DNA of 64,000 bases from Hyphomicrobiaceae bacterium (GTDB lineage Bacteria > Pseudomonadota > Alphaproteobacteria > Rhizobiales > Hyphomicrobiaceae), in assembly GCA_046348995.1 (NCBI GenBank), contig JAXMDB010000008.1, positions 211,525 to 275,524 of the forward strand. The letters are read 5' to 3'. The position numbers and the translations under genes were made by a program. Below are positions 43,510 through 62,682 of this stretch, piece after piece (position 1 is the stretch's first letter; each line of letters starts with the position of its first letter). A model generated the notes under the pieces. That model saw nothing but the letters and a program-made list of their open reading frames with translations, did not search any database and had not been told where the DNA came from.

Positions 43510-43656
43510 GGTCTGCTCCGGGTCGGCCCGCAGTTCGGTCGCCGAGGCTCGTCAGCGGAGGGCTGGCTGTCAAGGCGGCATGCTGGATGGCTGTGATGAA
43601 TTTATCACGCCCCCGTCGGTGGCCGGTAAAGAGGAATGCGGTCGCTGCGAGCGTGG

Positions 43657-44706: not shown

Positions 44707-44710
44707 GCCG

Positions 44711-45583: not shown

Positions 45584-45593
45584 GAGGGGTCTC

Positions 45594-47160: not shown

Positions 47161-48522
47161 CTACTCGTCCGCCAGCGCATACTTCTTGAGCAGCCGGTAC
47201 GTATTGCGCTCGCTGATGCCGAGCACCTCGGCGATGCGGGAGCGGTGGCCGTTGTATTTGACGACGAGGTCGCCGATGTAGCGGCGCCTGATTTCCTCGA
47301 GCGTCGGCTCGTGGTCGAAGCTCAGCACCGACTGATCGGCTCCCGCGCCCGGCGTGCCCTGCAGCATGATGTGGCCGGCATGGATGACCGGTGCGTCGCC
47401 CGAGACGAGGATCGCGCGCTCGATGACGTTCCTGAGCTCGCGGATGTTGCCGGGCCACGCGTAGCTCGTCAGCAGGTCGATCGCATCCTTGCCGAGCCGC
47501 TTCATCTTCGCGCGCTGGAACGAGCGCGTCTCGAGGAAGCGGTCGGCGATGAGCGCGATGTCCTCGCGCCGGTGGCGGAGCGGCGGCACATTGATGAGCA
47601 CGGTCGCCAGGCGATAGTAGAGGTCGGAGCGGAAGCGGGCGTCGTCGATGAGCCCGAGCAGGTTGCGGTTGGTCGCGGCGACGAAGCGGACGTCGCTCGA
47701 CAGGCTCTGCACGCCGCCGACGCGCCGGAACTCTCCCGTCTCGAGCACGCGCAGCAACTTCGCTTGCATGCCCGCCGGCAGCTCGCCGATCTCGTCCAGG
47801 AAGACGGTGCCGCCTTCGGCAACCTCGATGAGGCCGTCCTTGCGGCGCTCGGCCCCCGTGAAGGCGCCGCGCTCGTGGCCGAACAGCTCCGACTCGAACA
47901 GCGTGTCCTGCAGCGTCGTCGCGTCGATGGCGACGAAGTTCGATTTTGCCCGCTGCGACAGGAGATGGATCGACTTCGCCACCAGCTCCTTGCCGACTCC
48001 ACTCTCGCCCTCGATCAGGATCGTCGAGTTGGAGGGCGCGACGAGCTCGATCAGGCGCACCATCTCGAGGAAGGCCGGGCTGCGGCCCACCATCAATTGT
48101 GTGAGGCTCGGATTGAGCTGATCGCGGTAGTAGTCGAAGCTGCGCTTGAGCGAGCTCGTCTCCAGAACGCGATTGACGGCGAGCTCGAGCTCGGACGGAT
48201 TGACCGGCTTGACGAGGTACTCGGCGGCGCCCGCCCGCATGCTCTCGACCGCCTGCTTGATGCTGCCGCTCGCCGTCAGCACGATGACCGGGCAATGCGT
48301 CGTCAGCTCCGGCAGGCACGCGCTGCCTTCGGCATCCGGCAGCTTCATGTCGAGCATCACGAGCGAGGGGTCGCCGGCATGCAGCGCCGCCTTGGCCTCG
48401 ACCCAGGTGTGCGCACTCGTCGTGAAGTGCCCCATGCGCCGCATCTGCTCGACGAGCAGCCGGTTGAGAGTCCGGTCGTCCTCGATGACGAGAACGCGCT
48501 TGCTGTGACGTGCCGCTTTCAT
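47161..48522 (-). CDS. Sigma-54-dependent response regulator (NtrC/Fis family enhancer-binding protein)
   Basis: Receiver domain (D in MLDMKLP). AAA+ sigma-54 interaction domain with Walker A GESGVGKE, the GAFTGA motif (ERGAFTGAE) and Walker B (FLDEIGEL). C-terminal Fis-type HTH. 453 aa. Confidence 0.9.
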   Translation of the reverse strand: MKAARHSKRVLVIEDDRTLNRLLVEQMRRMGHFTTSAHTWVEAKAALHAGDPSLVMLDMKLPDAEGSACLPELTTHCPVIVLTASGSIKQAVESMRAGAAEYLVKPVNPSELELAVNRVLETSSLKRSFDYYRDQLNPSLTQLMVGRSPAFLEMVRLIELVAPSNSTILIEGESGVGKELVAKSIHLLSQRAKSNFVAIDATTLQDTLFESELFGHERGAFTGAERRKDGLIEVAEGGTVFLDEIGELPAGMQAKLLRVLETGEFRRVGGVQSLSSDVRFVAATNRNLLGLIDDARFRSDLYYRLATVLINVPPLRHRREDIALIADRFLETRSFQRAKMKRLGKDAIDLLTSYAWPGNIRELRNVIERAILVSGDAPVIHAGHIMLQGTPGAGADQSVLSFDHEPTLEEIRRRYIGDLVVKYNGHRSRIAEVLGISERNTYRLLKKYALADE

Positions 48523-50369
48523 GGGAGAGCCGCCTGTCGATCGGCCGACGGCATGGTGATGCGGAATCGCGTGCCCGAACCGCTCTTGCTCTCGACCGTG
48601 ATGGTGCCGCCCCAGCTTTTCAGGATCTCGCGACAGATCGGCAGGCCGAGGCCGGTGCCGTGCGCGCCATCGGCCCGGCGGCTCCAGAACGGCTCGAAGA
48701 TGCGCTGCTGATGCTCGAGAGGAATGCCGCAGCCGGTGTCGGCGAAATCGATCTCGAGGGAGTCGCCCGCGCGGCGGCCGGTGATCGTCAGCACGCCGCC
48801 TTCGGGCATGGCGTGAAACGCGTTCTGGGCGATGTTGAGCGCGAGCATGCGCATGTCGCTGTCGCTGGCGATGACTCTGAGATCGGGCGCGATCGCAGAC
48901 CGGATCTCGATCTTGCCCCCTAGAGCCTCGGCCGACAGGAGCGAGAGCGTATCGGCGACCACGTCGTTGAGGACGACGAGCTCGGGCTCTCCGCTCGACG
49001 GCGAGGACAGTTTGAGAAGCCGCTCCGTCACCTCGATGCAGCGGCCGATCTGCTGCTCGATCACCGGCACATAGGTGCGCGCGCCATCAAACCGCTCCTC
49101 GGCGATCTCGCGGCTGACGGCGCTCAGGCCGAACTGGATGGACGCCAGCGGATTGTGAATCTCGTGGGCGACGCCGGCGGCGAGGTAGCCGATCTCCGAC
49201 AGCCGCTGCTCCTGCGAGACCTTCAAGTCCTGGCTCAGATCGCGCACGACCTCGACGATCACATCGCGCCGCTCGCCCTTCACCTCGATCGACAACGGGG
49301 CGGCGGACACCTCGACATAATACTGCGTCGCGTCCTTGCGCACGTGACGATGCCGGCAGCTGACTTGGGATTGGCCCTTGCGCATCTCCTCGAGCGGACA
49401 CGTGACAAGCGTCGGCGCGCAGGGCCGGTCGCGACCGTGGCTCGAGAGGTAGCAAGGTCCGCCGACGATCTCGCCGCGTGCGTAGCCCGTCTGCGCCGCG
49501 AAGGCCGTGTTCGCCATAAGTACGGTGTAGTCGGCGTCGATGACGCGCACGCCGTCGGGCATGCCGTCGATGAGCGCCTGCAGGTTGGCCTCGCGCCGCT
49601 CGATGCTGCGAATGCCGTCGCCGATCTTTGCGGCCATGGCGTTGAACGATCTGGCGAGCGCTGCCATCTCGTCATGACCGCGCTCGGGCAGGCGCTCTTC
49701 CAAATAGCCATGCGCGATCGCCGCAGTCGCCGCGTCGAGACGCGCGAGCGGCGCGAGCACTGCCCGGTGCAGAACCGAAGCGATGCCGGCGATGGCGACC
49801 GCGAGCACCGTGCCGCCGGCGCCGCCGAGTGCCAAGGTCGCGCGGAGGATGTTGCCGAGGATGGAGCCGTCGGCATAGTCGACGACGATCGTGGACGCGG
49901 CGTCCCCGCCGCGGGCAAGCGTCGCCACGGTTCGCATGACGTCGCCTCGGTCGCCCTCGACGACACCGGCGCGTATCCCCTCACGCCCCTCGACCGGCCG
50001 GCACTCCGGACAGGTCCGATCCGTGACAGCTACCGTGGCTGTCCCGGTCGCGGCAAGCACCGTTCCATCGCGCGCCAAAACCGCGATTCCCACGACACCC
50101 GGATGCTGGCCGGCCGCGTCGATGGCCGTCCGCAGGGCCGCGCGATCGGACAGCGGCGCGCGGCTCTCGAGCGTGGCCTGTGCGAGATCGCTGATCGCTA
50201 CCGCGGCGTTCGTGCGATCCGACAGCATGTGGTTGCGATAGGCGAGCATCAGGATGAGGAGAAAGAAGAGCGAGGCGAGTGACGGGATGACGATCACGGT
50301 CATGAGCAGCCGGCGGCGCAGGCTGCCTGCTATCCAGTCCCGAACCGCTGAGACCGCTCGCATGCTCAT
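48519..50369 (-). CDS. PAS domain sensor histidine kinase (membrane; HAMP-like, PAS, HisKA, HATPase_c)
   Basis: TM helix (LLMTVIVIPSLASLFFLLILMLA), several Cys clusters (CPECRP; CYLSSHGRDRPCAPTLVTCP), H-box (GVAHEIHNPLASI) and ATPase boxes (DTGCGIP, GTGLGLPI). The probable start is the internal ATG at about 50369, adjacent to the upstream gene's stop. The ORF track extends to 50441. Confidence 0.85.
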   Translation of the reverse strand: MSMRAVSAVRDWIAGSLRRRLLMTVIVIPSLASLFFLLILMLAYRNHMLSDRTNAAVAISDLAQATLESRAPLSDRAALRTAIDAAGQHPGVVGIAVLARDGTVLAATGTATVAVTDRTCPECRPVEGREGIRAGVVEGDRGDVMRTVATLARGGDAASTIVVDYADGSILGNILRATLALGGAGGTVLAVAIAGIASVLHRAVLAPLARLDAATAAIAHGYLEERLPERGHDEMAALARSFNAMAAKIGDGIRSIERREANLQALIDGMPDGVRVIDADYTVLMANTAFAAQTGYARGEIVGGPCYLSSHGRDRPCAPTLVTCPLEEMRKGQSQVSCRHRHVRKDATQYYVEVSAAPLSIEVKGERRDVIVEVVRDLSQDLKVSQEQRLSEIGYLAAGVAHEIHNPLASIQFGLSAVSREIAEERFDGARTYVPVIEQQIGRCIEVTERLLKLSSPSSGEPELVVLNDVVADTLSLLSAEALGGKIEIRSAIAPDLRVIASDSDMRMLALNIAQNAFHAMPEGGVLTITGRRAGDSLEIDFADTGCGIPLEHQQRIFEPFWSRRADGAHGTGLGLPICREILKSWGGTITVESKSGSGTRFRITMPSADRQAALP

Positions 50370-50839
50370 TGCCGCGCGAGCCGGAGCAGGAGCGATTCTT
50401 GGGGTGCCTCGTCGGCATCGATCTCGACCACGCGCGAGCATCGCGCCGGCAAATCGGCCTCGTGCGCGGCAATCGGGATGACGACGGGGTGGCCCCGCGG
50501 CGTATCGAGGAAATGCGCGAGAAACGCACGACGCTCGCTCGCGGGCTTCGTCGCCAAGAGCGCCTCGGCATTCTGCAACACCAGACCGGAGGGCGCGATG
50601 CCATCGGCGATCGCCTCGTCGATGGCGGTGAGGGGCAAGCGTGCGGCGTCCCAGCCGAGCGGCTTCAGGCGCTCAGCACGGAAATCCACATACGCAAGTC
50701 CCAGCGCGCGCGCCATCTCCTCGACGAGTGCGGGGTGATAGCGCGTCAGCTTGGCGATGAAGCCACCCCGGCGGCCGTGCGCATCGAGGCATGCCTCGAT
50801 GGCGGTCAACCAGCGCGGTGCACCGGGCTGCTGGGTCAT
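50366..50839 (-). CDS. Hypothetical protein (157 aa), first gene of the kinase/EBP operon
   Basis: It is co-oriented with, and abuts, the kinase gene. No signal peptide or recognisable motif. Confidence 0.45.
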   Translation of the reverse strand: MTQQPGAPRWLTAIEACLDAHGRRGGFIAKLTRYHPALVEEMARALGLAYVDFRAERLKPLGWDAARLPLTAIDEAIADGIAPSGLVLQNAEALLATKPASERRAFLAHFLDTPRGHPVVIPIAAHEADLPARCSRVVEIDADEAPQESLLLRLARQ

Positions 50840-51193: not shown

Positions 51194-51210
51194 TTGGCAC
51201 ACGGCTTGCT
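51194..51210 (+). promoter_or_regulatory. Sigma-54 (RpoN) -24/-12 promoter
   Basis: TTGGCACacggcTTGCT matches the TGGCAC-N5-TTGCW consensus with the conserved GG and GC dinucleotides correctly spaced. It sits ~50 nt upstream of the ATG at 51258 and is preceded by an unusually AT-rich stretch (51150-51185) with an IHF-like AATCACTATTTTA. Confidence 0.65.
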
Positions 51211-51257: not shown

Positions 51258-51587
51258 ATGTTCGCAGCCGATCGCCGTCGGGTCGCAAATCTCCGCTCCG
51301 TGTTCGCCGCATCGCTCATCGTGCCATGTCTCGCCGTGCCCGCAGTCGCTGCGGGGCAGGCGTGGATCGCGGGGACTGCTCCCTCCATGCGCCCGGCCGA
51401 CGCGCCAGTGCTGGCGGCGGTCGACCACGACAAGGCTTGGTTCAAGCGAGCGCTGGCTGGCGTCTCGAAACCGGTACCGCCGAGCCTCGATTTTCTGAAG
51501 GATCAGGGCGGCTGGTTCACACCGTTCACGCACCCCGGAATGACGGGGCGCTACGACATTCGCAACCTCCACAACCAAGAGCCCTAG
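51258..51587 (+). CDS. Small secreted hypothetical protein (109 aa), first gene of the sigma-54 operon
   Basis: Signal peptide (AASLIVPCLAVPAVAAGQA). The conserved-looking C-terminus (GWFTPFTHPGMTGRYDIRNLHNQEP) matches no family I recognise. Confidence 0.5.
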   Translation: MFAADRRRVANLRSVFAASLIVPCLAVPAVAAGQAWIAGTAPSMRPADAPVLAAVDHDKAWFKRALAGVSKPVPPSLDFLKDQGGWFTPFTHPGMTGRYDIRNLHNQEP

Positions 51588-51719
51588 CCAACCGAACGTC
51601 TGGCAGAGCGCCAATCCCTTGGTGCGCTGCCGATAGCTGATCGCTGGGCTGCGATCGAACGCATGTGGCGGCCCCCAGCCCGAAACCGGGACCGCCTCGC
51701 AATACAGGAGCTTGAAACT

Positions 51720-52184
51720 ATGAAACGTATCGCAGCTGTCGCCGCCATCGCCCTCCTCTCCTCGTTCGGCGCTGCCTTCGCCGAGGACGAGCAGGCCGGC
51801 ATGTCCGGCATGAGCGGCATGTCCGGCATGGCCGGCGGCAACGCCGACTGGGTTTGCACGATGTGGGTCGACGCCGGCCAGATCGGCATGTCCGGGATGG
51901 GCGGCATGTCGGGCATGGGCGGCATGAATGGCATGAGTGGCATGGACGGCATGTCGGGCATGAATGGCATGTCGGGCATGGACGGCATGAGCGGCATGAA
52001 TGGCATGTCCGGCATGGATGGCATGAACGGCATGTCCGGGATGGATGGCATGAGCGGCATGAACGGCATGTCGGGCATGAACGGCATGTCCGGGATGGAC
52101 GGCATGTCGGGCATGAGCGGCATGGGCGGTCAGCCCGGCCAGGCTTGCGCTCAGTGGACGCACAAGACGCAGGTGAAGCAGTAA
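51720..52184 (+). CDS. Secreted methionine-rich Gly-Met-X tripeptide-repeat protein
   Basis: ATG 51720 preceded by CAGGAG. Signal peptide MKRIAAVAAIALLSSFGAAFA. About 31 GM(S/N/D/G) tripeptide repeats are bracketed by Cys residues (DWVCTMW ... QACAQWTHK). The underlying DNA is a 9-bp tandem array ggcatg(tcc/agc/aac/gac). Confidence 0.8.
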   Translation: MKRIAAVAAIALLSSFGAAFAEDEQAGMSGMSGMSGMAGGNADWVCTMWVDAGQIGMSGMGGMSGMGGMNGMSGMDGMSGMNGMSGMDGMSGMNGMSGMDGMNGMSGMDGMSGMNGMSGMNGMSGMDGMSGMSGMGGQPGQACAQWTHKTQVKQ

Positions 52185-52283
52185 TCGCACCTGCCCGGGT
52201 GGAGGCTGCGGAACCCGCGTCCGCGGTCTCTACCCGGACTTCTCAGATCCTTTGCATGCGAATGCGTTTCGCGAGGGGGCGAA

Positions 52284-53201
52284 ATGAAAAGGCAGTATGG
52301 CCTCGTGCCAGTCGTCGGAGCCGTTGCGATTTTGGCGGCAGGTCTGCTGCTCAGTCTGGGGGAGGGCGGCCGGTCAGGTGCTGGAGCTCAAGCAGGCCAG
52401 ACCGGATCGACCTCTCCCAGCGCCATCGAGGAGCTCGCCAAGGCGAAAAAGTCCTATCCCCGCGCCGTGTGGACACCATTGCACTTCACGCCCGCCATCG
52501 ACACGGCGACGAACGAGCAATGCCTCACCTGCCATCAGGAGATTCTGAAAGCGAAGGTTCGCGAGGTGTCGCCAGCCGGTCTTGCCGCCGCGGACACCAC
52601 CGCTTGGTATCAGACGCTCGACACCTATGCGGGCAAGCAGGAAACCTTCCACGCCCGCCACTTGAAGACGCCGCTCGCCAAGGAGGTCATGAACCTCACC
52701 TGCAATTTCTGCCATCGCGGCCACGATCCGCGTGAGGAGATGCCGGGCTCGAGCGCGACGACGACAGCAGCGGCCCTCGGCGATTTCACTTTCCGCAAGA
52801 CCGTCAATCCGTCGAAAACCTGCCTCCTTTGCCACGGCCGCTACCCGCAAGAGGTCATGACCGGAGTTGAGGGCTCCTGGCCCGAGGCCCGCAAGACCAT
52901 CGAGGATGCGTCCTCGCCGGATACACAGAACGGCTGCCTCGTCTGCCACAACATGGACGCCGGCATCCGCACAGTTCGCCATCAGGTGAGCTACCTCAAG
53001 GCCGACGCCATCGAGGCGCGGGCCAAGAAAGGCTCCTCCGACCTCTGCTACGGCTGCCACGGCGGACGTGCCTGGTACCGCATCAGCTACCCCTACCCGC
53101 GCCACCCGTGGAAGGACATGCCGGACGAGATGCCCGACTGGGCCAAGAGCCGGCCGACCGCCTCCGACCCGCGCTACGCGCTCGACAAGAAGACACCGTG
53201 A
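52284..53201 (+). CDS. Pentaheme c-type cytochrome (membrane-anchored or secreted)
   Basis: N-terminal hydrophobic segment (LVPVVGAVAILAAGLLLSL). Five CxxCH motifs: CLTCH, CNFCH, CLLCH, CLVCH, CYGCH. RBS GAGGGG. Confidence 0.85.
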   Translation: MKRQYGLVPVVGAVAILAAGLLLSLGEGGRSGAGAQAGQTGSTSPSAIEELAKAKKSYPRAVWTPLHFTPAIDTATNEQCLTCHQEILKAKVREVSPAGLAAADTTAWYQTLDTYAGKQETFHARHLKTPLAKEVMNLTCNFCHRGHDPREEMPGSSATTTAAALGDFTFRKTVNPSKTCLLCHGRYPQEVMTGVEGSWPEARKTIEDASSPDTQNGCLVCHNMDAGIRTVRHQVSYLKADAIEARAKKGSSDLCYGCHGGRAWYRISYPYPRHPWKDMPDEMPDWAKSRPTASDPRYALDKKTP

Positions 53202-53212
53202 GGGATGCCGTC

Positions 53213-55807
53213 ATGATCGACCCGAAACACGCGGGCAGCTGGCACGTCGAGACGCCCGTTCGCCTGAACCTCAATCGCCGCGATGTGCTCCGCGGACTGC
53301 TGGCGTCGAGCGCCATCGGCCTCGTGCCGCTCACCACGCTGACCTCGAGCAAGCCAGCCGCGGCCTTCGCCTACGAGCCATACCCAAAGGACGACGAGCT
53401 GACGACGGTCGTCACCAGCTGCGCGCACAATTGCGGCTCGCGTCATATGCTGGTCGCGCACAAGAAGGGCGACGTCATCGTCCGTCTGTCGACCGACGAC
53501 GGCCGCTATCAGGAGGACGGCTTCTTCGGCAAGGACACCGAGGAGGAGCCGCAGATCCGTGCCTGCCTGCGCGGCCGCTCCTACCGCTCGCGCCTCTATT
53601 CGCCCGAGCGCCTGCTCTATCCGATGAAGCGGGTCGGCAAGCGCGGCGAGGGCAAGTTCAAACGCGTGTCGTGGGACGAGGCGTTGGGCGGCATCGCCGA
53701 GAAGATGACGGAGATCAAGGCAAAGTACGGCCCGACCGCGCTGCTCGACCAGAGCTACGCCGGCGCCTCCTATGGCGTGCTGCACAAGTCGGATCAGATC
53801 GAAGGCCTGCTCGGCCGCTTCCTCGGCATGTTCGGCTGCCGCACGAACTCGTGGTCGGTGCCGTCCTATCAGGCGACGACCTTCTCCTCGCGCATGACCT
53901 TCGGCACCATCGAGGATGGCAACGAGGACGACACCTTCGCGCACTCCAAGCTCATCATCATGTGGGGCTGGAATCCGGCCTACACCTTCCACGGCGGCAA
54001 CACGTTCTACTACATGCGGCTCGCCAAGCAGCGCGGCTGCAAGTTCGTGCTCGTCGACCCGCAATACACGGACTCGGCCTCTGTCTATGACGCCTGGTGG
54101 ATCCCGATCCGGCCCAACACGGACGCCGCGATGCTTGCCGGCATGGCCCACCACATCTTCACCAACAACTGGCACGACCAAGCCTTCATCGACCGCTTCT
54201 GCCAGGGCGTGGATGCCGGCACGATGCCCCAGTGGGCCAAGGGCAAGGAGAGCTTCAAGGACTATATCCTCGGCACCATGGACGGGCAGCCGAAGACGCC
54301 CGAGTGGGCGGCCGAGATTTGCGGCGTCAAAGCCGAGGACATCAAGAAGCTCGCCGAGATGTATGCGACGACGAAGCCTGCGGCATTGAAAGCGTCGTGG
54401 GCGCCCGGCCGCAATGCATACGGCGAGCAGTACAGCCGCATGGCCGCCGCCGTGCAGGCGATCACCGGCAACATCGGCAAGCTCGGCGGGTCGTCGGAAG
54501 GCGTCGGCAAGGCCTGGCATCCGGAGGCGGTCGCCTATCCCTACGACGAGAACGCCAACATCTGGTTCGCCTCGATCAAGTCGGACCGCTGGGCGCACTG
54601 CGTGCTGAACTACCCCAACGTCAAGCGCGAGGAGATCGGTTGCTGGCCGAGGAACGACAAGCTCGACGGCACCATTCCCAACATCAAGGGGATCTTCTGG
54701 CAGGGCTCGGACTGGTTCAACCAGCTGACGAACATCAACAAGATGATCGAGGCGGTGCAGAAGCTCGAGCTCGTCGTCTGCATGGACTCGACGATCACGC
54801 CGTCAGGACTTTGGGCCGACTACCTGATCCCGATCGCCACGCATTTCGAGCGGCATGACACGGCGCTGCCCTGGTACAAGGGCCACTACTACATCCATCG
54901 CCCGCGTGTGATTGCCCCGCTCGGCGAGAGCCGCACGGATATCCAGGTCTTCACCGAGCTCGCCTATCGCCTGGAAGAGCTCGATCCGAAGACCCTCAAA
55001 GACTTCGGCAAGCGCTACAATCCGCGCGCGACCCGGGACTATTTCAACGACAATACCGCCGTCGACGAGGAGTATCTGACCCACTGGTGGAACGAGAAGG
55101 TGATGAAGCACCAGGGCGTCACCATGAGCTGGGAGGACTTCAAGAAGCACGGCGTCTACAAATTCAAGCTCGCCGAGCCGCACGTGGCTTTCCGCCAGCA
55201 GATCGAGACCGGGCTGCCGTTCTTGACCCCGTCGGGCAAGATCGAAATCCTCTCCTCGACCCTCGCGCAATACAAGGACTGGACGAAGACCGCCTACGGC
55301 TACGAGATTCCGGCGATCCCGAAGTGGATCGAGCCGTGGGAGTGGCTCGGCAACAAGGAGAAGACGGGCAAGCACCCGTTCCATCTGATCTCGCCGCATC
55401 CACGCTGGCGGACACACTCGATCTTCAACAACATCCCGTGGCTGCGCGAGACCTTCGAGCAGGAGGTGACGCTCAACGCCGCCGACGCCGCCAAGCTCGG
55501 CATCAAGACCGGCGACACGGTCGAGGTGTTCAACGATCGCGGCAAGTGCGTCGTGCCGGCCTACGTCACCGAGCGCTGCATGCCGGGCGTCGCGGTGTTG
55601 CACGAAGGGGCGTGGATGGATCTCGACAAGAACGGCGTCGACCGCGCGGGCAACCCGGACTTCCTGACCTTGGACGAGCCCTCGCCAGCCGGTGCCTTCG
55701 CCTACAACACCGTGCTCGTGAACATCGCCAAGTCGGAGCTCGAGCATCGCCCGGGCTGGGACCGGCTCGCGACCGCGCGCTCGTCCGTCTTCCGCCGCGA
55801 CATGTAA
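53213..55807 (+). CDS. Tat-exported molybdopterin oxidoreductase catalytic subunit (DMSO reductase family)
   Basis: Twin-arginine signal (NRRDVLRGLLASSAIGLVPL). It has the molybdopterin oxidoreductase fold, a molybdopterin dinucleotide-binding C-terminal domain and an atypical N-terminal Cys motif (SCAHNCGSRH...IRAC). 864 aa. Confidence 0.9.
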   Translation: MIDPKHAGSWHVETPVRLNLNRRDVLRGLLASSAIGLVPLTTLTSSKPAAAFAYEPYPKDDELTTVVTSCAHNCGSRHMLVAHKKGDVIVRLSTDDGRYQEDGFFGKDTEEEPQIRACLRGRSYRSRLYSPERLLYPMKRVGKRGEGKFKRVSWDEALGGIAEKMTEIKAKYGPTALLDQSYAGASYGVLHKSDQIEGLLGRFLGMFGCRTNSWSVPSYQATTFSSRMTFGTIEDGNEDDTFAHSKLIIMWGWNPAYTFHGGNTFYYMRLAKQRGCKFVLVDPQYTDSASVYDAWWIPIRPNTDAAMLAGMAHHIFTNNWHDQAFIDRFCQGVDAGTMPQWAKGKESFKDYILGTMDGQPKTPEWAAEICGVKAEDIKKLAEMYATTKPAALKASWAPGRNAYGEQYSRMAAAVQAITGNIGKLGGSSEGVGKAWHPEAVAYPYDENANIWFASIKSDRWAHCVLNYPNVKREEIGCWPRNDKLDGTIPNIKGIFWQGSDWFNQLTNINKMIEAVQKLELVVCMDSTITPSGLWADYLIPIATHFERHDTALPWYKGHYYIHRPRVIAPLGESRTDIQVFTELAYRLEELDPKTLKDFGKRYNPRATRDYFNDNTAVDEEYLTHWWNEKVMKHQGVTMSWEDFKKHGVYKFKLAEPHVAFRQQIETGLPFLTPSGKIEILSSTLAQYKDWTKTAYGYEIPAIPKWIEPWEWLGNKEKTGKHPFHLISPHPRWRTHSIFNNIPWLRETFEQEVTLNAADAAKLGIKTGDTVEVFNDRGKCVVPAYVTERCMPGVAVLHEGAWMDLDKNGVDRAGNPDFLTLDEPSPAGAFAYNTVLVNIAKSELEHRPGWDRLATARSSVFRRDM

Positions 55808-55819
55808 GGGGGCACCACG

Positions 55820-56491
55820 ATGGCCAACGCCAAAAAGCTCGACAGGACGCAGGTGGACGAGGCAATCGCGCGCCGCGACCGCGCCACCTACGAGCCCGTC
55901 AAACCCGAATTGCAGCTCGGCTTCATTCACAACAACGTCGACTGCATCGGTTGCCGCGCCTGCGAGATCGCCTGCAAGGACAAGAACGGACTGCCGCCGG
56001 GCCCGCGCTTCCGCCGCGTCATGTACGTCGAGGGCGGCACGTTCCCGGAGGTCTTCGCCTACAAGGTGAACATGTCATGCAACCACTGCGCGGAGCCGGC
56101 CTGTCTGCCGTCGTGCCCGACGGGCGCGATCTTCAAACGTGAGAAGGACGGTATCGTCGATATCGACTCGACGCTGTGCATCGGCTGCCGCCGGTGTGAG
56201 GCAGCCTGCCCGTTCGGGGCGCCGCAGTACATCCCCGAGTCCAACATCGTCGCCAAGTGCAACATGTGCGTCGACGAGATCGAAGCCGGCCGCAAGCCCT
56301 ACTGCGTCATGGCCTGCATGATGCGCGTGCTCGACATCGGCCCGATCGACAAGTTGCGGGACGGCACCTGGGAGACGAAGGCGCGCGGCCCTCAGGATAC
56401 GGTCGTCGGCCAAGTGCAGAACATGGCCGACCCCGAGCTCACCCATCCCTCGATCGTCTACGTGGCCCATCCGAAAGGCGTGGTGAAGTGA
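55820..56491 (+). CDS. 4Fe-4S ferredoxin-type electron-transfer subunit (DmsB-like, four clusters)
   Basis: Four Cys clusters: CIGCRACEIAC...C, CNHCAEPACLPSCP, CIGCRRCEAACP, CNMCVDEIEAGRKPYCVMAC. No signal peptide, as expected for Tat hitch-hiking with the catalytic subunit. Confidence 0.9.
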   Translation: MANAKKLDRTQVDEAIARRDRATYEPVKPELQLGFIHNNVDCIGCRACEIACKDKNGLPPGPRFRRVMYVEGGTFPEVFAYKVNMSCNHCAEPACLPSCPTGAIFKREKDGIVDIDSTLCIGCRRCEAACPFGAPQYIPESNIVAKCNMCVDEIEAGRKPYCVMACMMRVLDIGPIDKLRDGTWETKARGPQDTVVGQVQNMADPELTHPSIVYVAHPKGVVK

Positions 56492-57246
56492 TGCGCACAG
56501 TGTCGATCGCGAGGCGCGAGGAGCCGTCTGCTGAGAGCCAGCTCCGCCAAGCGGTCGCCGCCGATCTGCGACTGCTCGCTGCCCTTCACGATCGAGAGCC
56601 GACGGCCGCCCTGCTCGACGAGTTGCGGCGCGCACCGTTCGCCTCGCGACTCGGTCTCGTGCTCGACAGCGAAGGCGCGCGGCAGGCGCTTGCGGCCTTC
56701 GACGGTGCGCTCGCTGCACTGCCGGCCACCATCGATGGGAGCGTCGTCGACGATCTTGCGGCAGGATACGCCGACATCTACCTGACGCATCACTTGCGTG
56801 CGTCGCCCCTCGAGTCGGTCTGGCTCGACGAGGATCACCTCGTCCGCCAGGAGCCGATGTTCGAGGTTCGCAAGTGGTACCGGCACTACGGCCTCGGCAC
56901 CGCCGATTGGCGCAACCGGCCGGACGATCACCTCGTGCTCGAGCTTCAGTTCATCGCCGAGCTCGTCAGTCTGGAAGCAGCGCCTGCCGCACTTGGCGAT
57001 GCGGCCCGCTTCCTCGACGAGCACCCTCTCAAATGGATCGGCCTGTTCGCAGAGCGTGTGGCCACGAAGGGCGGACACGACTATTTCGCGGCGCTGGCGC
57101 TCTTGACCTCGGGCTATCTGCACGAGCTGCGGGCACGGCTGACGACCATTACCGGGATCGGCGTTCCCCTTGTCGCCGAGGCCAAGGACTCGGACAGGCT
57201 CCGGACATCCCCGGATCCGTCAAAACCTCAGACGGCGGGGTGCTGA
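56491..57246 (+). CDS. TorD/DmsD family redox-enzyme maturation chaperone
   Basis: ATG 56491 overlaps the upstream stop. All-helical, with TorD-like conserved Trp/Asp/His context (RPDDHLVLELQFIAEL). Confidence 0.7.
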   Translation: MRTVSIARREEPSAESQLRQAVAADLRLLAALHDREPTAALLDELRRAPFASRLGLVLDSEGARQALAAFDGALAALPATIDGSVVDDLAAGYADIYLTHHLRASPLESVWLDEDHLVRQEPMFEVRKWYRHYGLGTADWRNRPDDHLVLELQFIAELVSLEAAPAALGDAARFLDEHPLKWIGLFAERVATKGGHDYFAALALLTSGYLHELRARLTTITGIGVPLVAEAKDSDRLRTSPDPSKPQTAGC

Positions 57247-57284: not shown

Positions 57285-57722
57285 CTATTTGTTCCGGTCA
57301 CCCTTGCCCAGCTCATCGACGTAGAACCGCACGAGCTTCACCAGCCGGTCCCGGCTTTCCGACGTCGGCAAGCTCGTGAGCAGTTGGGCGACCTCCCGGC
57401 ATTGGGCCTCCAGGCGGGTCTCGCTGAGCTGGCTTTCGAGCTGCGCCTCTCCATCGCCGGGGGTCTCGAAGAACCACTCGATCGGCGTCGACAGCGCCTT
57501 GGCGATATCGAGCAAGCGCATCGCGGGAACGCGATTGACGCCCGTTTCGTACTTGTGCAGCTGCTGGAACGAGACGCCGAGTTGATCGGCCAATTGCCAC
57601 TGCGTTATGCCAAGCACTGCGCGCCGCCGCTTGATTTGGCGGCCGATGCCCGCGTCGTGCTCTGTGACACTCCGGGAGGCCCCGGTACCCTCTGCAGGAC
57701 GTGCACGCCTCGAACTGCTCAC
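57285..57722 (-). CDS. XRE family (Cro/C1-type HTH) transcriptional regulator
   Basis: HTH LGITQWQLADQLGVSFQQLHKYETGVNRV. The N-terminal extent is uncertain. Confidence 0.7.
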   Translation of the reverse strand: MSSSRRARPAEGTGASRSVTEHDAGIGRQIKRRRAVLGITQWQLADQLGVSFQQLHKYETGVNRVPAMRLLDIAKALSTPIEWFFETPGDGEAQLESQLSETRLEAQCREVAQLLTSLPTSESRDRLVKLVRFYVDELGKGDRNK

Positions 57723-57870
57723 AGCATCGCCTCTTGCTCAGGTATTTCGCGGGGAATGCATCCTCCTAACACGGGGTAGCCGTGAGGGAAACACCTGTGA
57801 AGCTTAACATGCCGCAAGTATCGGCGGCCGGCCCACGAGCTAGCCGCCGATCCTGAGTGAAGGCGATCGC

Positions 57871-58023
57871 CTATTTCGACAGCTCGTCGACGAGGTTGAC
57901 CGGGATCATCACGATGCCCTCGGCGGCCTTGACGATGTCGCCGACGGGATCGGGCTCGCCAGCCATCACGGCCGGGCTCGAAAAGGCGACGAGAACGCAC
58001 GCAAGCATGAGCTTCTTCACCAT
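57871..58023 (-). CDS. Candidate 50-aa secreted small protein (not in the ORF track, which has a 60-aa cutoff)
   Basis: The reverse-complement reads MVKKLMLACVLVAFSSPAVMAGEPDPVGDIVKAAEGIVMIPVNLVDELSK*. It has a signal-peptide-like N-terminus with an AXA site. Confidence 0.3.
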   Translation of the reverse strand: MVKKLMLACVLVAFSSPAVMAGEPDPVGDIVKAAEGIVMIPVNLVDELSK

Positions 58024-58145
58024 GTGGTACCCCCCAAAGGTGGTTGCGACGCACGTAGGCTAGCATATTTGCTCTGCTGCACGTGGGACATGTCTGCATC
58101 GGTGGACGCCTTGCGAGCGAGGCTGGCGCATGCGAGCGTCGGCTG

Positions 58146-58724
58146 ATGACCACAGCGACGACAGTTTGGCGGCGCGTCGGTGAGCACCGCGTCATGCCCT
58201 GGAAGAACGGCTTGGGCGAGACGATCGAGATCGCTCGCTCGCCCGATGGAGAGAGTCTCGACGGCTTCGATTGGCGCGTCAGTGTCGCCCCGGTCGTCGC
58301 CGACGGGGCATTCTCGGTTTTCCCGGGCATCGATCGGACGATCGCGGTCATCGAAGGGGCCGGCATGGCGCTCGATGTGGCGGGACGCAGCGTCGTGCTG
58401 CGGCCGGGCGTTCCCTTCACCTACGACGGTGGGCTCGCCGTGCATGGCCGGCTCGTCGACGGCCCCGTCCGGGACATCAACGTCATGGTGCGCCGCGGTC
58501 GCTGCACCTGCGAGATGATCCTGGTGTCGGGTGCGAGCGCGATTGCTGCCGTTGCGGCGACTGTCGTCGCTTACGGCCTCGAGGGCGAATGGGACGTTAC
58601 TGCCGAAAATGAGGGCCGCCGGATGGGCTCGGGCTGCTCCGTCACGACGGACGGCTCGCCGCTGACGTTCTTGCCCGCATCGCCCCGGGCGCGCCTTGCG
58701 ATCGCGGTGATCCGGCCGATCTGA
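58146..58724 (+). CDS. HutD/Ves family protein
   Basis: ATG 58146 (MTTATTVWRRVGEHRVMPWKNGLGETIEIA), which is the HutD N-terminal signature. About 192 aa. Confidence 0.75.
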   Translation: MTTATTVWRRVGEHRVMPWKNGLGETIEIARSPDGESLDGFDWRVSVAPVVADGAFSVFPGIDRTIAVIEGAGMALDVAGRSVVLRPGVPFTYDGGLAVHGRLVDGPVRDINVMVRRGRCTCEMILVSGASAIAAVAATVVAYGLEGEWDVTAENEGRRMGSGCSVTTDGSPLTFLPASPRARLAIAVIRPI

Positions 58725-58738
58725 CCGGAAGCTCGGCC

Positions 58739-59020
58739 CTACGCCGCCGGAGACGTCGCCATCCGGCCGCCGGTGATGACCTGGAATCGCCGTACAGGCT
58801 TCTCAGCCGCCGGCCCATTCATGGCCGCGCTCAACAACTTGCGGGCCCTGAGCAATGCCGCCGCCTCGGTCAGGAATCGCTTCGCGCCGGGGTGTGCTTC
58901 GGATCGCGCCATGCACTCGATGAGGCGCTTGGCGCCCGCTTCGCTGCCTTCGAGCTCCACCGCCAGGCGCAGCAGTTGCCTGTCGAGATTGAGAGCGGCG
59001 GATTTGATCAGATCGTCCAT
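58739..59020 (-). CDS. Hypothetical protein (93 aa)
   Basis: Internal ATG at 59020 with GGAAGAAG RBS (MDDLIKSAALNLDRQLLRLAVELEG...). The upstream part of the ORF-track call overlaps the neighbouring gene. Confidence 0.45.
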   Translation of the reverse strand: MDDLIKSAALNLDRQLLRLAVELEGSEAGAKRLIECMARSEAHPGAKRFLTEAAALLRARKLLSAAMNGPAAEKPVRRFQVITGGRMATSPAA

Positions 59021-59096
59021 GGCTTCTTCCAAAACGGAGAAGAAGCCTTGCCGATTCCCCGTTAATGAAGAGTTTATTGCCGGCGCGCTCCGGCGG

Positions 59097-59678
59097 TCAC
59101 GGATAGGAAAATCCGAAACCGAAGCGTACGAGCCGGTCGCCCTTGAACGTGTACTCGGCGGCGTAGGACGGCATGTTGTGGGCCTTGAGGAAGTCCGACG
59201 CGGTCGCGTCGGCGACCTCGTAGCGAATGACCTCGGTGCCATCGCCGGCATCGGACGGCGCCGCCGCACACGCGCCGAACCGGTCGAGGACGTCCTTGCG
59301 CGTCATGCCCAATCGGACACCGCGACCGGTGCGGAACAGGGGCGTGTCGAGCACCGTCGCCTCGACATCGGCGTCGAGGTCCTCTGCGGGGAGCACCTCG
59401 GCCGATTCGAATACGTCGGCCTTGTCCCCGAACAGCCGGTGCAAGAGCAGGATCTCGGTCTCGGTCGTGTTCGTGAAAGCGGCCGTATCGGTGCCGCTCT
59501 CGTCCTCGGCGACCTGATAGTCGCTGCCGAGCTGGAGCACCGTGCTCAACGGATCGCCGAGCTCGATGCCGTGCACGGCGATGTCGGGATTGGTGGGCGT
59601 GCAGGCCGCGTGGGCCGGCATGCGCATCGACAGCATTCCGGCGAGCGCCAGAACGGCAAATCCCCCTTGTGTCCGCAT
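59097..59678 (-). CDS. Secreted hypothetical protein (193 aa)
   Basis: Signal peptide (FAVLALAGMLSMRMPAHA). Acidic mature region with a C-terminal FGFGFSYP. Confidence 0.55.
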   Translation of the reverse strand: MRTQGGFAVLALAGMLSMRMPAHAACTPTNPDIAVHGIELGDPLSTVLQLGSDYQVAEDESGTDTAAFTNTTETEILLLHRLFGDKADVFESAEVLPAEDLDADVEATVLDTPLFRTGRGVRLGMTRKDVLDRFGACAAAPSDAGDGTEVIRYEVADATASDFLKAHNMPSYAAEYTFKGDRLVRFGFGFSYP

Positions 59679-59682
59679 CCGC

Positions 59683-62682
59683 CTAATGCGCCGCCTCCCA
59701 GTTGTCCGCGGCCTTGGCGTCGACCTTGAGGGGCACGGCGAGCTTCAAAACCGGCTCCGGACTCCGCTCCATGATCTTGGCGACGAGCGGCAGGGTCTTG
59801 GCGACCTCCGCCTCCGGGACCTCGAACACGAGCTCGTCGTGCACCTGCAAGAGCATGCGCGCGGCAAGCCCTGCCTCGACGAGCGCACCCTGCATGCGCG
59901 CCATGGCGCGGCGGATGATGTCGGCGGCCGAGCCCTGGATCGGTGCGTTGATCGAGGCGCGCTCGAGGAATCCGCGCATTGACGGGTTCTTCGTGTTGAT
60001 CTCGGGGAAATGGATCTTGCGTCCGAACAGCGTCGTCACGAACCCCTGCTCGTGGGCCAACCGCTTCGTCGCCTCCATGTAGTCGCGGATGCCGGGGAAG
60101 CGCTTGAAGTAGGTGGTGATGTAGTCGCCGGCCTCTTGCTTGGAGATACCGAGCTGGTTGGCGAGCCCGAACGCCGAGATGCCGTAGATGATGCCGAAGT
60201 TGATCGCCTTGGCGCGGCGGCGCACCTCCGCCGGCATGCCCTCGATCGGCACGCTGAACATTTCGGAGGCCGTCATCGCGTGAATGTCGAGCCCCTTGTC
60301 GAAGGCGGCCTTGAGCTGCGGGATCTCCGCCATGTGCGCGAGCACCCTGAGCTCGATCTGCGAGTAGTCGGCCGAGACGAGCTTGTTGCCTGCTTCCGCG
60401 ATGAAGGCGGTGCGGATCTCGCGGCCTTCCTTCGTGCGGACGGGAATGTTCTGCAGGTTGGGATCGGTCGAGGCCAAGCGCCCGGTCGAGGTCGCCGCCA
60501 TCGAGAAACAGGTGTGGATGCGGCCCGTCTCGGGATGGATGTAGGTCGGCAGCGCGTCCGTGTAGGTCGAGCGGAGCTTGGAGAGCTGCCGCCACTCGAG
60601 CATCGTGTTGACGAGCCGGCGCGCGTCGTCCGGCAGCTCCTCGTTGTTGGCGAGGTCGTCGAGGAGGCCGGCGCGCGTCTCCCATTGGCCGGTTTTCGTT
60701 TTCTTGCCCCCAGGCAGTTTCAACTTGTCGAACAGCAGCTCGCCCAGCTGTTTGGGCGAGCCAAGATTGAAGCTCTGGTCGCCGATCAGCTCCTTGACCT
60801 CCGCTTCGAGCGCTCCGCAACGCTGCGCGAAAGCGCCCGAAAGCCGGGAGAGAATGTTCCGATCGACCTTGACGCCCACACGCTCCATGTCCGCGAGCAC
60901 CGGCGACAGCGGCCGCTCCAAGGTTTCATAGACTGAGGTCATCCGCTCGGCCGCGAGCCGGGGCTTCAGCACATGCCAGAGCCGCAGCGTCACGTCGGCA
61001 TCCTCGGCCGCGTACTCGGTGGCGTCCGGCACCGGCACCTCGGCGAAGGTACGCTCGGCTTTCTTCGGCCCCGGCGGCACCTTGGCGAGGGCGTCCTTGA
61101 AGGGGATGGTCACATGGCCGAGGTGACGCTCGGAGAGCTCGTCCATGCCATTGCCGCCCTTCCCCGAGTCGAGCACGTAGGAGAGTAGCATGGTGTCGTC
61201 ATAGGGCGCGACGCGTATGCCATAGCGGGCAAGCACGGTGACGTCGTATTTGAGATTGTGCCCGATCTTGAGCGTGGCCATGTCCTCGAGCATCGGCTTC
61301 AGCACGTCGAGGGCATCGCGCAACGGGAGTTGTACCGGCCCTGCGCCCATGCCGGCGAAGTCGAAGCCATCGGCCGAGCGATGGCCGAGCGGAATGTAAC
61401 AGGCCCTGCCGGGCGCGAGCGCCAGCGACACACCGACGAGATTGGCGCGCATGGCGTCGAGGCTGTCGGTCTCGGTGTCGACCGAGATGCGGCCTTGAGT
61501 TTGCGCCGCCTCGACCCAGTGCCGGAGGCAGTCCATGGTCGTGACCGTCTCGTAGGCCTTGCGATCGATCGGCGTGTCCTTGCCGAGGGTAAGCCCGAAG
61601 GCGACGCCGGCGCCGGGTGAGTTGGTGCCGCCGTTGCGCTTGCCGGCAGCGGGCGGCGTCGAGCCGGCGTCTTTGCGCGGGAGGCTGCTGCCGACGGATT
61701 TGTCCAGAGGTGCCGGAGCATCGACGCCCAAACCCTCGGCGACGCGTTTGGCGAGTGAGTTGAACTCCATCAGCCGCATGAAGCCGAGCAGATCGTTGGA
61801 GTCCGGATCCTTGACGGCAATCTCGTCGAGGCCGATCTCGACGGGAACGTCCTGCTTCAGCCGCACCAGCTCACGGCTCATGCGCGCCTGATCGGCGAAT
61901 TCGAGCAAGCGCTCGCGGCGCTTGGGCTGTTTGATCTCGCCGGCGCGGGCGAGCAGCGTGTCGAGGTCACCATATTCCTTGATGAGCTCGGCAGCCGTCT
62001 TGATGCCGATGCCCGGTACGCCTGGCACGTTGTCGGTCGAGTCGCCGGCGAGCGACTGGATATCGACGACCTTGTCGGGGCCGACGCCGAACTTCTCCTC
62101 GACCTCGGCCGTACCGATGCGCTTGTTCTTCATCGTGTCGAGCATGCCGATGCCCGGCTTGACGAGCTGCATCAGATCTTTGTCGGAGGAGACGATGGTG
62201 ACGTCGCCACCAGCTTCGAGCGCCTGCCTTGCATAGGTCGCGATGAGATCGTCGGCCTCGTAGCCATCTTGCTCGATGCAGGCGACGCAGAAGGCTTTGA
62301 CCGCGTCACGGATCAGCGGGAATTGCGGGACCAGCTCTTCGGGGGCGGGTGGCCGGTGCGCCTTGTAGTCCTTGAAGATCTCGTTGCGGAAGGTCTCGCG
62401 GGAGGCGTCGAAGATGACGGCGATATGGGTCGGTTTGTCGGCTTCGCGGCTATCCCGGAGCAGCTTCCAAAGCATCTGGCAGAAGCCGTGCACGGCCCCG
62501 ACCGGCAGTCCATCCGAAGGCCGCGACAGAGGCGGAAGGGCGTGAAAGGCCCGGAAGATGTAGCCCGAGCCGTCGATCAGGAAGACGTGGCTGCCTTTGC
62601 CGACGGGGGCGTCGGTCGAGGAGCGATGATTGGCGATGACGCGCTTGGCGCGCGGTTCCGTGGGCTTGGCGGTGTCGGTCAT
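59683..62682 (-). CDS. polA: DNA polymerase I
   Basis: The 5'-3' exonuclease domain (FLIDGSGYIFRAFHAL), the 3'-5' exonuclease domain and polymerase motifs A, B and C (DYSQIELR, RRRAKAINFGIIYG, QVHDELVFE) are all present. 999 aa. Confidence 0.95.
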   Translation of the reverse strand: MTDTAKPTEPRAKRVIANHRSSTDAPVGKGSHVFLIDGSGYIFRAFHALPPLSRPSDGLPVGAVHGFCQMLWKLLRDSREADKPTHIAVIFDASRETFRNEIFKDYKAHRPPAPEELVPQFPLIRDAVKAFCVACIEQDGYEADDLIATYARQALEAGGDVTIVSSDKDLMQLVKPGIGMLDTMKNKRIGTAEVEEKFGVGPDKVVDIQSLAGDSTDNVPGVPGIGIKTAAELIKEYGDLDTLLARAGEIKQPKRRERLLEFADQARMSRELVRLKQDVPVEIGLDEIAVKDPDSNDLLGFMRLMEFNSLAKRVAEGLGVDAPAPLDKSVGSSLPRKDAGSTPPAAGKRNGGTNSPGAGVAFGLTLGKDTPIDRKAYETVTTMDCLRHWVEAAQTQGRISVDTETDSLDAMRANLVGVSLALAPGRACYIPLGHRSADGFDFAGMGAGPVQLPLRDALDVLKPMLEDMATLKIGHNLKYDVTVLARYGIRVAPYDDTMLLSYVLDSGKGGNGMDELSERHLGHVTIPFKDALAKVPPGPKKAERTFAEVPVPDATEYAAEDADVTLRLWHVLKPRLAAERMTSVYETLERPLSPVLADMERVGVKVDRNILSRLSGAFAQRCGALEAEVKELIGDQSFNLGSPKQLGELLFDKLKLPGGKKTKTGQWETRAGLLDDLANNEELPDDARRLVNTMLEWRQLSKLRSTYTDALPTYIHPETGRIHTCFSMAATSTGRLASTDPNLQNIPVRTKEGREIRTAFIAEAGNKLVSADYSQIELRVLAHMAEIPQLKAAFDKGLDIHAMTASEMFSVPIEGMPAEVRRRAKAINFGIIYGISAFGLANQLGISKQEAGDYITTYFKRFPGIRDYMEATKRLAHEQGFVTTLFGRKIHFPEINTKNPSMRGFLERASINAPIQGSAADIIRRAMARMQGALVEAGLAARMLLQVHDELVFEVPEAEVAKTLPLVAKIMERSPEPVLKLAVPLKVDAKAADNWEAAH

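Follow-up and report, generated by a model that had tools for sequence, protein, structure and literature searches.

A conserved operon for a DmsA-like molybdoenzyme, a pentahaem cytochrome c, and a methionine-rich secreted protein: a candidate periplasmic methionine redox cycle

An operon of six genes was found in a 64-kb stretch of DNA (the window) from a Hyphomicrobiaceae bacterium of the Rhizobiales order (GenBank assembly GCA_046348995.1, contig JAXMDB010000008.1, positions 211,525 to 275,524 of the forward strand). All coordinates below count from the first letter of the window. The genes encode, in this order, a small secreted protein (orf109), a methionine-rich protein, a pentahaem cytochrome c, a catalytic molybdoenzyme subunit (A), its electron-transfer partner (B), and a TorD-like chaperone. 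The cluster in the window is an intact copy of a widespread, uncharacterised kind that is commonly annotated as "DMSO reductase" (dimethyl sulfoxide reductase). The chaperone, the methionine-rich protein, orf109, and the sigma-54 regulation were absent from a first-pass annotation of this DNA, and it is these parts that carry most of the functional information. The features of the operon are as follows.

51195..51209, + strand: sigma-54 type promoter TGGCAC-N5-TTGC, 49 nucleotides 5′ of orf109, the first operon gene
51258..51587, + strand: orf109, small secreted protein, first operon gene, found in 58 of 80 loci
51720..52184, + strand: secreted Met-rich repeat protein of 154 residues with a Sec signal peptide and a (M-x-G)27 run
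52284..53201, + strand: periplasmic or tethered pentahaem c-type cytochrome of 305 residues with exactly five CxxCH motifs
53213..55807, + strand: catalytic subunit A of 864 residues, DmsA-like, exported by twin-arginine translocation (Tat), with a molybdenum bis-pyranopterin guanine dinucleotide (Mo-bisPGD) cofactor, from Pfam and NCBIfam matches
53420..53566, + strand: FS0 cluster-binding segment of A, C70-x3-C74-x3-H78-x39-C118, residue positions read from the translation
55820..56491, + strand: DmsB-like electron-transfer subunit B of 223 residues, ferredoxin-type, with four [4Fe-4S]-type Cys groups
56491..57246, + strand: maturation chaperone of the TorD/DmsD/NarJ family (Pfam PF02613, 80.2 bits)

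Is this arrangement common? The presence of each gene was counted in 80 retrieved loci by targeted tblastn searches, since all-versus-all clustering of open reading frames (ORFs) was blurred by antisense and low-complexity ORFs. The cytochrome gene and the B gene were each found in 77 of the 80 loci and the chaperone gene in 72, and 43 loci have a gene for a cytoplasmic polyferredoxin, which is missing from this window. Since the same arrangement recurs in 77 to 80 of the 80 related loci, it is not a product of chance. Relatives of A at 78-83% identity are very numerous, and a scan of one genome per species gave at least 595 loci with the cluster. The carriers include Hyphomicrobiales, Azospirillum, Rhodocyclales and Burkholderiales (Dechloromonas, Zoogloea, and Ottowia), Competibacteraceae, Chromatiales, Beggiatoaceae, Thiothrix, Sedimenticola, and Candidatus Thiodiazotropha, and the A sequence is about 80% identical across Alpha-, Beta-, and Gammaproteobacteria. 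Carriers in culture include Dechloromonas agitata DSM 13637, Rhodobacter xanthinilyticus LPB0142, Thermopetrobacter sp. TC1, and Azospirillum species. A complete cluster also lies on a 264-kb conjugative plasmid, Rhodobacter xanthinilyticus pEJ01 (NZ_CP017782.1, 5167-16149; locus L089), where it adjoins a transposase of the IS1380 family and where the NCBI pipeline gives its genes generic names only. The plasmid location and the roughly 80% identity across three proteobacterial classes are consistent with horizontal spread. Genome papers call these genes dmsAB and read them as anaerobic DMSO respiration (PMC5728499, PMC6872982). In lucinid symbionts, a "gene similar to anaerobic DMSO reductases" ranks with an aa3 oxidase among the genes and proteins of highest expression, its substrate being assumed by annotation. 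Thiodiazotropha genomes carry the A clade. Full-text literature searches found no description of the operon architecture or of the association with a Met-rich protein.

The A subunit has a twin-arginine motif (NRRDVLR) at residues 21-27, and a Tat motif is present in 73 of 79 homologues. The Pfam domains Molybdopterin and Molydop_binding were matched, while Molybdop_Fe4S4 stayed below its threshold (17.1 against 22.7 bits). A is 35% identical to Escherichia coli DmsA. Against the NCBIfam model TIGR02166 (DMSO/selenate family reductase A subunit) it scores 602.6 bits, below the cut-off of 777.7, and it falls far under the cut-offs of the equivalog/exception models for DmsA (430 against 1600) and YnfE (456 against 1675). 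The best family matches are S-/N-oxide reductases, namely TIGR02166, TIGR00509, and the PDB entries for DorA and TorA/TorZ; the solved structures that match A best are 1eu1 and 7l5i. Ser218, in the motif SWSVPSY that is invariant in all 79 sequences, aligns with the Mo-ligand Ser147 of DorA and with the YSS motif of DmsA, and its assignment as the predicted Mo ligand of A is strongly supported by these alignments. Kinship with pyrogallol transhydroxylase and resorcinol hydroxylase, which are AB enzymes lacking FS0, was rejected; PDB 4v4c gives a weak match only (106 bits), and A has both a Tat signal and an FS0 segment.

The N-terminal region of A contains SCAHNCGSRH (residues 69-78) and IRAC, which ends at C118. 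The first-pass annotation had quoted both strings exactly and had taken them as a degenerate FS0 motif, allowing that it might have mis-parsed a complete one. The motif is indeed non-canonical. However, it is not degenerate, and the alignment with E. coli DmsA and 79 relatives rules out a mis-parse: ACTVNCGSRC...RAC of DmsA corresponds to SCAHNCGSRH...RAC of A, and the only ligand change is that of the third Cys to His78. The whole motif, C-(A/D)HN-C-G(S/A)R-H...C-LRG, is invariant in 79 of 79 family sequences. In a search of 1.84 billion cluster representatives, the nearest full-length relatives are 54% (P0265), 46% (P0267), and about 40% identical to A. Phylogenetic placement, which had been proposed as a check, put the A family in a clade of its own, apart from E. 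coli DmsA, YnfE, and YnfF in a different major branch (neighbour-joining (NJ) tree, 127 sequences). Among these 127 relatives, His at the third FS0 position is confined to the A family and its sister P0265, whereas nearly all of the others with an alignable FS0 have Cys there. P0267 has another variant, C-x3-H-x3-C, with His in place of the second Cys. Since the His is invariant in the clade and is common only with the sister clade, the predicted FS0 site is a conserved and derived Cys3-His variant, not a decayed one. His is an established Fe-S ligand, for example in the FS0 of NarG and in the distal cluster of NiFe-hydrogenases, and DmsA mutants with three Cys assemble a [3Fe-4S] cluster. The metagenome contig with P0267 (L086, 4557-8797) has the gene order A, TorD, B, and a membrane-anchored 3-haem cytochrome, a homologue of the first portion of the pentahaem protein. 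This contig also carries a dCache-PAS kinase and a sigma-54 regulator, and no Met-rich gene was seen there.

The B subunit is a four-cluster DmsB-like partner, as had been annotated; it shares 42% identity with E. coli DmsB, all four Cys groups are intact, and its score against TIGR02951 is 195.7 bits, below the cut-off of 214.1. B lacks a signal peptide of its own and is presumably exported together with A under guidance of the chaperone. The ATG of the chaperone gene overlaps the stop codon of B (TGATG). The best NCBIfam match of the chaperone is TorD, and tblastn and start-codon evidence support the gene. The reported lack of a membrane quinol-oxidase subunit held over the whole window: no NrfD/DmsC-type protein was found in the 64 kb by a hydropathy scan, by Pfam searches of every polytopic ORF, or by tblastn with E. 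coli DmsC. The polytopic membrane proteins of the window are of the major facilitator superfamily, EamA, and ATP-binding cassette (ABC) permease types only. Nor do the 80 loci share a conserved polytopic membrane ORF close to A; those that 13 of them have are unrelated. There is strong support for a complex that is either soluble in the periplasm or loosely tethered there, with no membrane subunit for quinol oxidation.

The cytochrome gene upstream of A does encode exactly five haem-binding motifs, as the first-pass annotation stated. Besides these five CxxCH motifs, the family keeps three Met and four additional His residues invariant. In the gammaproteobacterial homologues, the N-terminus is an ordinary cleavable signal peptide, and several betaproteobacterial ones have a lipobox. 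The alphaproteobacterial cytochromes, including that of the window, have a hydrophobic segment and, after it, a linker of low complexity, which is about 25 residues in the window copy and 100-200 in the longest homologues. These N-termini argue against a quinol dehydrogenase of the NapC/TorC type, an identity that was rejected also for its weak profile matches. A NapC/NirT-like haem arrangement had been proposed for checking; hhalign favours E. coli NrfB (88%, 110 columns) over NapC (44%) and TorC (31%). The score against Pfam PF03264 (NapC/NirT) is 17.1 bits (E = 0.0047), below the cut-off of 24.1, and that against the NrfB-like PF22678 is 21.4, below 27. PF22113 was matched at 31.3 against a cut-off of 30. 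The Pfam matches point to multihaem modules of the MtrC/MtrF type and the c7 type. An AlphaFold2 model of the cytochrome, built from an alignment of 33 sequences, is of low confidence (predicted local distance difference test (pLDDT) score 47). The predicted cytochrome, soluble or tethered, appears to resemble NrfB. The idea that the cytochrome stands in place of a DmsC anchor, as a membrane quinol oxidase, was not borne out: most homologues have a cleavable signal, a lipobox, or a tether and linker, and the profile is closer to NrfB than to NapC or TorC.

Where do the electrons come from? Fusion proteins in which the pentahaem domain follows a membrane-anchored domain of class I cytochrome c (PF00034, 40.8 bits) are encoded by R. 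xanthinilyticus pEJ01 and by a Hyphomicrobiales genome (L047); the pEJ01 protein consists of a transmembrane anchor, a class I cytochrome c domain, and a pentahaem domain. In eight loci of Thiodiazotropha, Sedimenticola, and related Gammaproteobacteria, class I cytochrome c has a gene of its own within the operon. No second c-type cytochrome gene was found in the 64-kb window. It is strongly supported that the pentahaem cytochrome is the redox partner of AB and is joined to the class I cytochrome c pool. Electrons would then pass from this pool through the pentahaem cytochrome, the four clusters of B, and FS0 to Mo. The quinol-oxidising step, by bc1 or by an enzyme of the NapC/CymA type, must be encoded outside the window. 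At locus L033 (14078-17675) and in eight or nine more gammaproteobacterial loci (Thiodiazotropha and Sedimenticola), the operon extends further, with genes for a class I cytochrome c, for a polyferredoxin, and for a secreted protein of the thioredoxin-like/AhpC-TSA type with NHL repeats. This last protein adjoins the cluster in nine loci.

The methionine-rich protein precedes the cytochrome gene. Its mature part has 32 Met (24%) and 39 Gly in 132 residues, the (M-x-G)27 run is uninterrupted, and the Met-to-Met spacing is three in 29 of 32 cases. An ORF antisense to the repeat (51718-52242, - strand) would encode 174 residues with five CxxCH motifs. This candidate multihaem cytochrome was rejected as an artefact of the GGCATG repeat, which brings a risk of mis-calling; the G+C content at third codon positions is 0.55 in the antisense frame as against 0.82 in the sense frame of the Met-rich gene. 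A Met-rich ORF on the + strand was found within 3.5 kb 5′ of the cytochrome gene in 66 of 77 loci, and six of the 11 loci lacking it are truncated contigs. The pooled composition is 36% Gly, 26% Met, and 15% Ser, with 0.3% His, 0.5% Cys, and 0.6% Asp, and about 90% of the pooled Met-Met spacings are three. Loci of the Dechloromonas type have shorter secreted proteins rich in Met, Lys, and Glu, which resemble MrpX. The sister clade with the 54%-identical A has another repeat, (GPGM)n, at the same place 5′ of the cytochrome, A, and B genes; because of this, it is Met richness that appears conserved and not the repeat geometry. The repeat is bordered by two short Cys motifs, WVCTxW and (V/A)C(V/A)QWT (51850-51870 and 52140-52160 in the window; residues about 44-50 and 141-147). 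Both are seen again in the copies of Alphaproteobacteria and Competibacter but not in those of Thiodiazotropha, which have no Cys. The flanking motifs may close a disulfide loop.

The first gene of the operon, orf109, occurs solely with this operon. The mature part is about 75 residues in length, and its C-terminal motif, W-x-TPF-x2-PGM-x2-YD-x-R-x2-H, is invariant. No family match was found in Pfam and NCBIfam, and the AlphaFold2 model is of low confidence (pLDDT 62, predicted template modelling score 0.24). Its role may be that of an additional subunit or of a docking peptide. In 10 loci, a gene for a protein of 270 residues, of no stated family, lies 5′ of orf109. As for regulation, the sigma-54 consensus has a single match in the window, where 0.1 would be expected by chance, and at least 15 other loci have the exact consensus directly 5′ of their orf109 homologue. 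The operon is thus predicted to be under sigma-54 control. A scan of the region for sigma-70 promoters and terminators gave nothing informative. Three genes on the opposite strand are transcribed divergently from the operon:

48519..50441, - strand: sensor histidine kinase with transmembrane, HAMP, Cys-rich PAS, HisKA, and HATPase regions (Pfam domains), divergent from the operon
47161..48522, - strand: NtrC-type sigma-54-dependent response regulator (Pfam Response_reg and Sigma54_activat)
50366..50839, - strand: orf157, cytoplasmic protein, overlapping the start of the kinase gene and divergent from the operon

The kinase gene is linked to the cluster in about 54 of the 80 loci and the regulator gene in about 53. 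In the cytoplasmic PAS domain of the kinase, Cys330, Cys341, and Cys348 are invariant in 53 to 54 of 54 homologues, and a periplasmic CPEC motif is present in 36 of the 54. These Cys residues suggest a possible role in redox, Fe-S, or metal sensing. orf157, which has no family match in Pfam and NCBIfam, is present in 11 of the 80 loci, every one of the Hyphomicrobiaceae type. The flanking genes (42607-47049 on the - strand; 57285-62682) are apparently unrelated to the cluster. Upstream, they encode a carbon-nitrogen hydrolase and an ABC transporter of the branched-chain-amino-acid type (two ATPases and two permeases), and downstream an HTH_3 regulator, a HutD-family protein, and DNA polymerase I. 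A fragment of orf109 in a metagenome-assembled genome of the Hyphomicrobiaceae is 100% identical, which suggests that family as the source of the window.

What does the enzyme reduce? The view that its substrate cannot be deduced from sequence was too pessimistic, since the operon context gives a specific and testable candidate. The physiological substrate would be methionine sulfoxide on the co-encoded secreted (Met-x-Gly)n protein. This disordered protein would act as a sacrificial sink for periplasmic oxidants such as hypochlorous acid, chlorite-derived species, and peroxides, and the Mo enzyme would regenerate it with electrons from the respiratory chain, as a DMSO-reductase-family analogue of MrpX/MsrPQ. 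By analogy with MrpX/MsrP, I tentatively favour, at somewhat less than even confidence, a cytochrome-c-fed periplasmic sulfoxide reductase that re-reduces the co-encoded Met-rich scavenger. The enzyme may recycle oxidised methionine rather than respire DMSO, and a periplasmic methionine redox cycle is the most parsimonious reading. A sulfoxide substrate is suggested by the invariant Ser at the Mo-ligand position together with the matches to S-/N-oxide reductase families. That this sulfoxide is methionine sulfoxide is suggested by the Met-rich ORF found in the same operon in 66 of the 77 loci, and by the Met richness in the sister clade as well. The thioredoxin-like/AhpC-TSA and NHL neighbour in nine loci and the high expression, in symbionts, of a gene that may belong to the A clade add circumstantial support. 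Enzymes of the group to which A belongs reduce protein-bound methionine sulfoxide (PMC7402097), TorZ/MtsZ is a methionine sulfoxide reductase acting on the free form (PMC5122715), and MrpX/YedY gives a functional precedent for the cycle (PMC4436054).

Several points weigh against the methionine cycle. The proposed substrate of this clade is deduced from the gene neighbourhood and by analogy. The main counter-argument is thermodynamic: a donor of the class I cytochrome c kind, with a typical potential of about +200 to +300 mV, would be awkward for a sulfoxide, the sulfoxide/thioether couple being near +160 mV (the DMSO/DMS value; DMS, dimethyl sulfide); such a donor would suit an acceptor of higher potential or the oxidative direction. 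The regulation is by a sigma-54 two-component system and not by an oxidant-sensing extracytoplasmic function sigma factor as for MrpX. About five evaluable loci have no detectable Met-rich gene. A wider version of the cycle, in which an abundant disordered (Gly-Met-x)n protein traps oxidants as methionine sulfoxide and a cytochrome-c-wired Cys3-His DmsAB-type enzyme reduces it, so that oxidants are detoxified and used as an electron sink, seems rather unlikely. If true, it would explain the abundance of "DMSO reductase" in chemosynthetic symbionts under oxic conditions.

A serious rival, although I consider it somewhat unlikely, is that the enzyme serves respiration as the terminal reductase of a small-molecule oxide or oxyanion (such as DMSO, another S-/N-oxide, selenate/tellurate, iodate, or chlorate) and is fed by the cytochrome c pool. 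The Met-rich protein would then not be the substrate but an accessory, for example one that scavenges a reactive product like chlorite or hypoiodous acid. A class I cytochrome c linkage is typical of periplasmic reductases with high-potential acceptors, and the best family matches of A include DmsA/YnfE and the selenate/tellurate reductases YnfE and YnfF; however, the A clade stands apart from the characterised DmsA/YnfE, below the family cut-offs and in another branch of the tree. Shewanella DmsAB is reported to reduce iodate (PMC9048795, PMC11302344), the Azospira MrpX guards against by-products of the respiration of chlorine oxyanions (PMC4436054), and DMSO respiration is what the literature assumes for these genes (PMC5728499, PMC6872982). 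On the other hand, the operon would then include a scavenger but lack an enzyme for its recycling, neither chlorite dismutase nor peroxidase has a conserved gene across the 80 loci, and the symbiont gene is highly expressed alongside an aa3 oxidase. Chlorate reduction in particular was rejected, as no cld gene is conserved near the cluster.

The potentials would also allow the enzyme to run in the oxidative direction, as a dehydrogenase of thioethers or reduced sulfur (for example, DMS to DMSO). Oxidases, enzymes of denitrification, or photosynthetic reaction centres would then receive the electrons by way of B, the pentahaem cytochrome, and class I cytochrome c. The flow from the +160 mV couple to cytochrome c is downhill, the pentahaem cytochrome is fused to or lies beside a class I domain resembling cytochrome c2/cy, and the carriers are rich in oxidisers of sulfur or DMS (Thiodiazotropha, Sedimenticola, Beggiatoaceae, Thiothrix, Hyphomicrobium, and Rhodobacter). 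However, the cluster is also present in many that do not oxidise sulfur (Competibacter, Zoogloea, and Azospirillum), the known dehydrogenases of the DMS, selenate, and ethylbenzene type are type II enzymes with an Asp Mo ligand and a haem b subunit whereas A is of the Ser type, and the Met-rich protein would be left without a role. I regard this direction as improbable. Very improbable, in turn, is that the Met-rich protein binds periplasmic Cu(I)/Ag(I) or another soft metal and that the operon serves metal homeostasis or a redox transformation of metals or metalloids. The (M-x-G)n repeat does give the MxxM spacing, a known Cu(I)/Ag(I)-binding motif that matches the Cu(I) "Mets" motifs and so also counts against the methionine cycle, and the sensor kinase has conserved Cys residues. 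Nevertheless, the repeats are nearly devoid of His, Cys, and Asp, unlike the Met/His-rich regions of the CopA/PcoA/CopB type, and the geometry is not kept in the sister clade, where (GPGM)n gives Mx3M. The cluster has no conserved gene for resistance to copper or any other metal, and A belongs to the oxo-transfer group of S-/N-oxide reductases.

The question concerns many organisms, since the carriers include key wastewater denitrifiers and accumulators of polyphosphate or glycogen (Competibacter, Dechloromonas, and Zoogloea for these wastewater groups), Hyphomicrobium, Azospirillum, large sulfur bacteria, and symbionts of lucinid clams. If the methionine cycle is true, many metabolic reconstructions that read DMSO respiration would need to be corrected, a fifth enzymatic route of protein methionine sulfoxide repair would be added, and a natural Cys3-His FS0 variant would be at hand for the study of electron transfer in complex iron-sulfur molybdoenzymes. 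If it is wrong, the cluster would still encode a distinct cytochrome-c-linked terminal oxidoreductase that deserves a substrate assignment.

How does the cluster compare with known systems? It resembles a DmsAB-type complex iron-sulfur molybdoenzyme by its predicted products. As in E. coli DmsABC/YnfEFGH, A is Tat-exported with an N-terminal FS0 and a Ser at the Mo-ligand position, B has four Cys groups, and the chaperone belongs to the TorD/DmsD family. Three defining traits of DmsABC/YnfEFGH are not shared: the scores are below the NCBIfam cut-offs, FS0 has His instead of Cys as the third of its four ligands, and there is no DmsC/YnfH membrane anchor. The partnership with c-type cytochromes, the sigma-54 two-component control, and the separate branch of the NJ tree also set it apart.

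The MrpX/MsrPQ system shares a logic but not its proteins. MrpX of Azospira suillum has 20% Met and 44% charged residues and scavenges hypochlorite with YedY1Z1 (MsrPQ) (PMC4436054). In both systems, a secreted Met-rich protein (20% Met in MrpX and 24-26% here) is co-operonic with a periplasmic molybdoenzyme of a sulfoxide-capable group, and the Dechloromonas-type proteins are rich in Lys and Glu as MrpX is. In contrast, most of the Met-rich partners here are long and strictly periodic, (G-M-x)n. The enzyme here, known from genes alone, is a bis-PGD AB pair of the DMSO-reductase family with a cytochrome c wire and not MsrP of the sulfite-oxidase family with the haem b protein MsrQ, and no YedY/YedZ-like genes were found in the cluster. 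The control is by a sigma-54 two-component system here and by SigF/NrsF there.

DorA/DorC, TorA/TorC, and TorZ(MtsZ)/TorY are likewise periplasmic, Ser-ligated Mo-bisPGD reductases of S-/N-oxides that work with a pentahaem c-type cytochrome, and DorA and MtsZ reduce methionine sulfoxide (PMC7402097, PMC5122715). However, DorA, TorA, and TorZ lack FS0 and a B subunit, both of which are present here, and DorC, TorC, and TorY are membrane-anchored quinol dehydrogenases of the NapC/NirT type, which the cytochrome of the window matches weakly (hhalign 31-44%). With NrfABCD the cluster shares a multihaem cytochrome, here apparently NrfB/MtrA-like, in series with a four-cluster ferredoxin-type subunit, whereas the membrane subunit NrfD and the haem catalytic subunit of Nrf differ from what is encoded here. 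The first-pass annotation had concluded that this hybrid set of subunits suggests an unusual electron-entry route. A non-standard route is indeed implied, but the combination is not unprecedented, as AB enzymes are fed by c-type cytochromes with no NrfD subunit in Shewanella DmsEFAB, ArrAB/CymA, and PcrABC. The closest precedent for a DmsAB working with c-type cytochromes instead of DmsC is Shewanella DmsEFAB; its enzyme is extracellular and relies on a decahaem DmsE and an outer-membrane porin DmsF, whereas the cluster described here encodes a pentahaem cytochrome and no DmsF-type porin.

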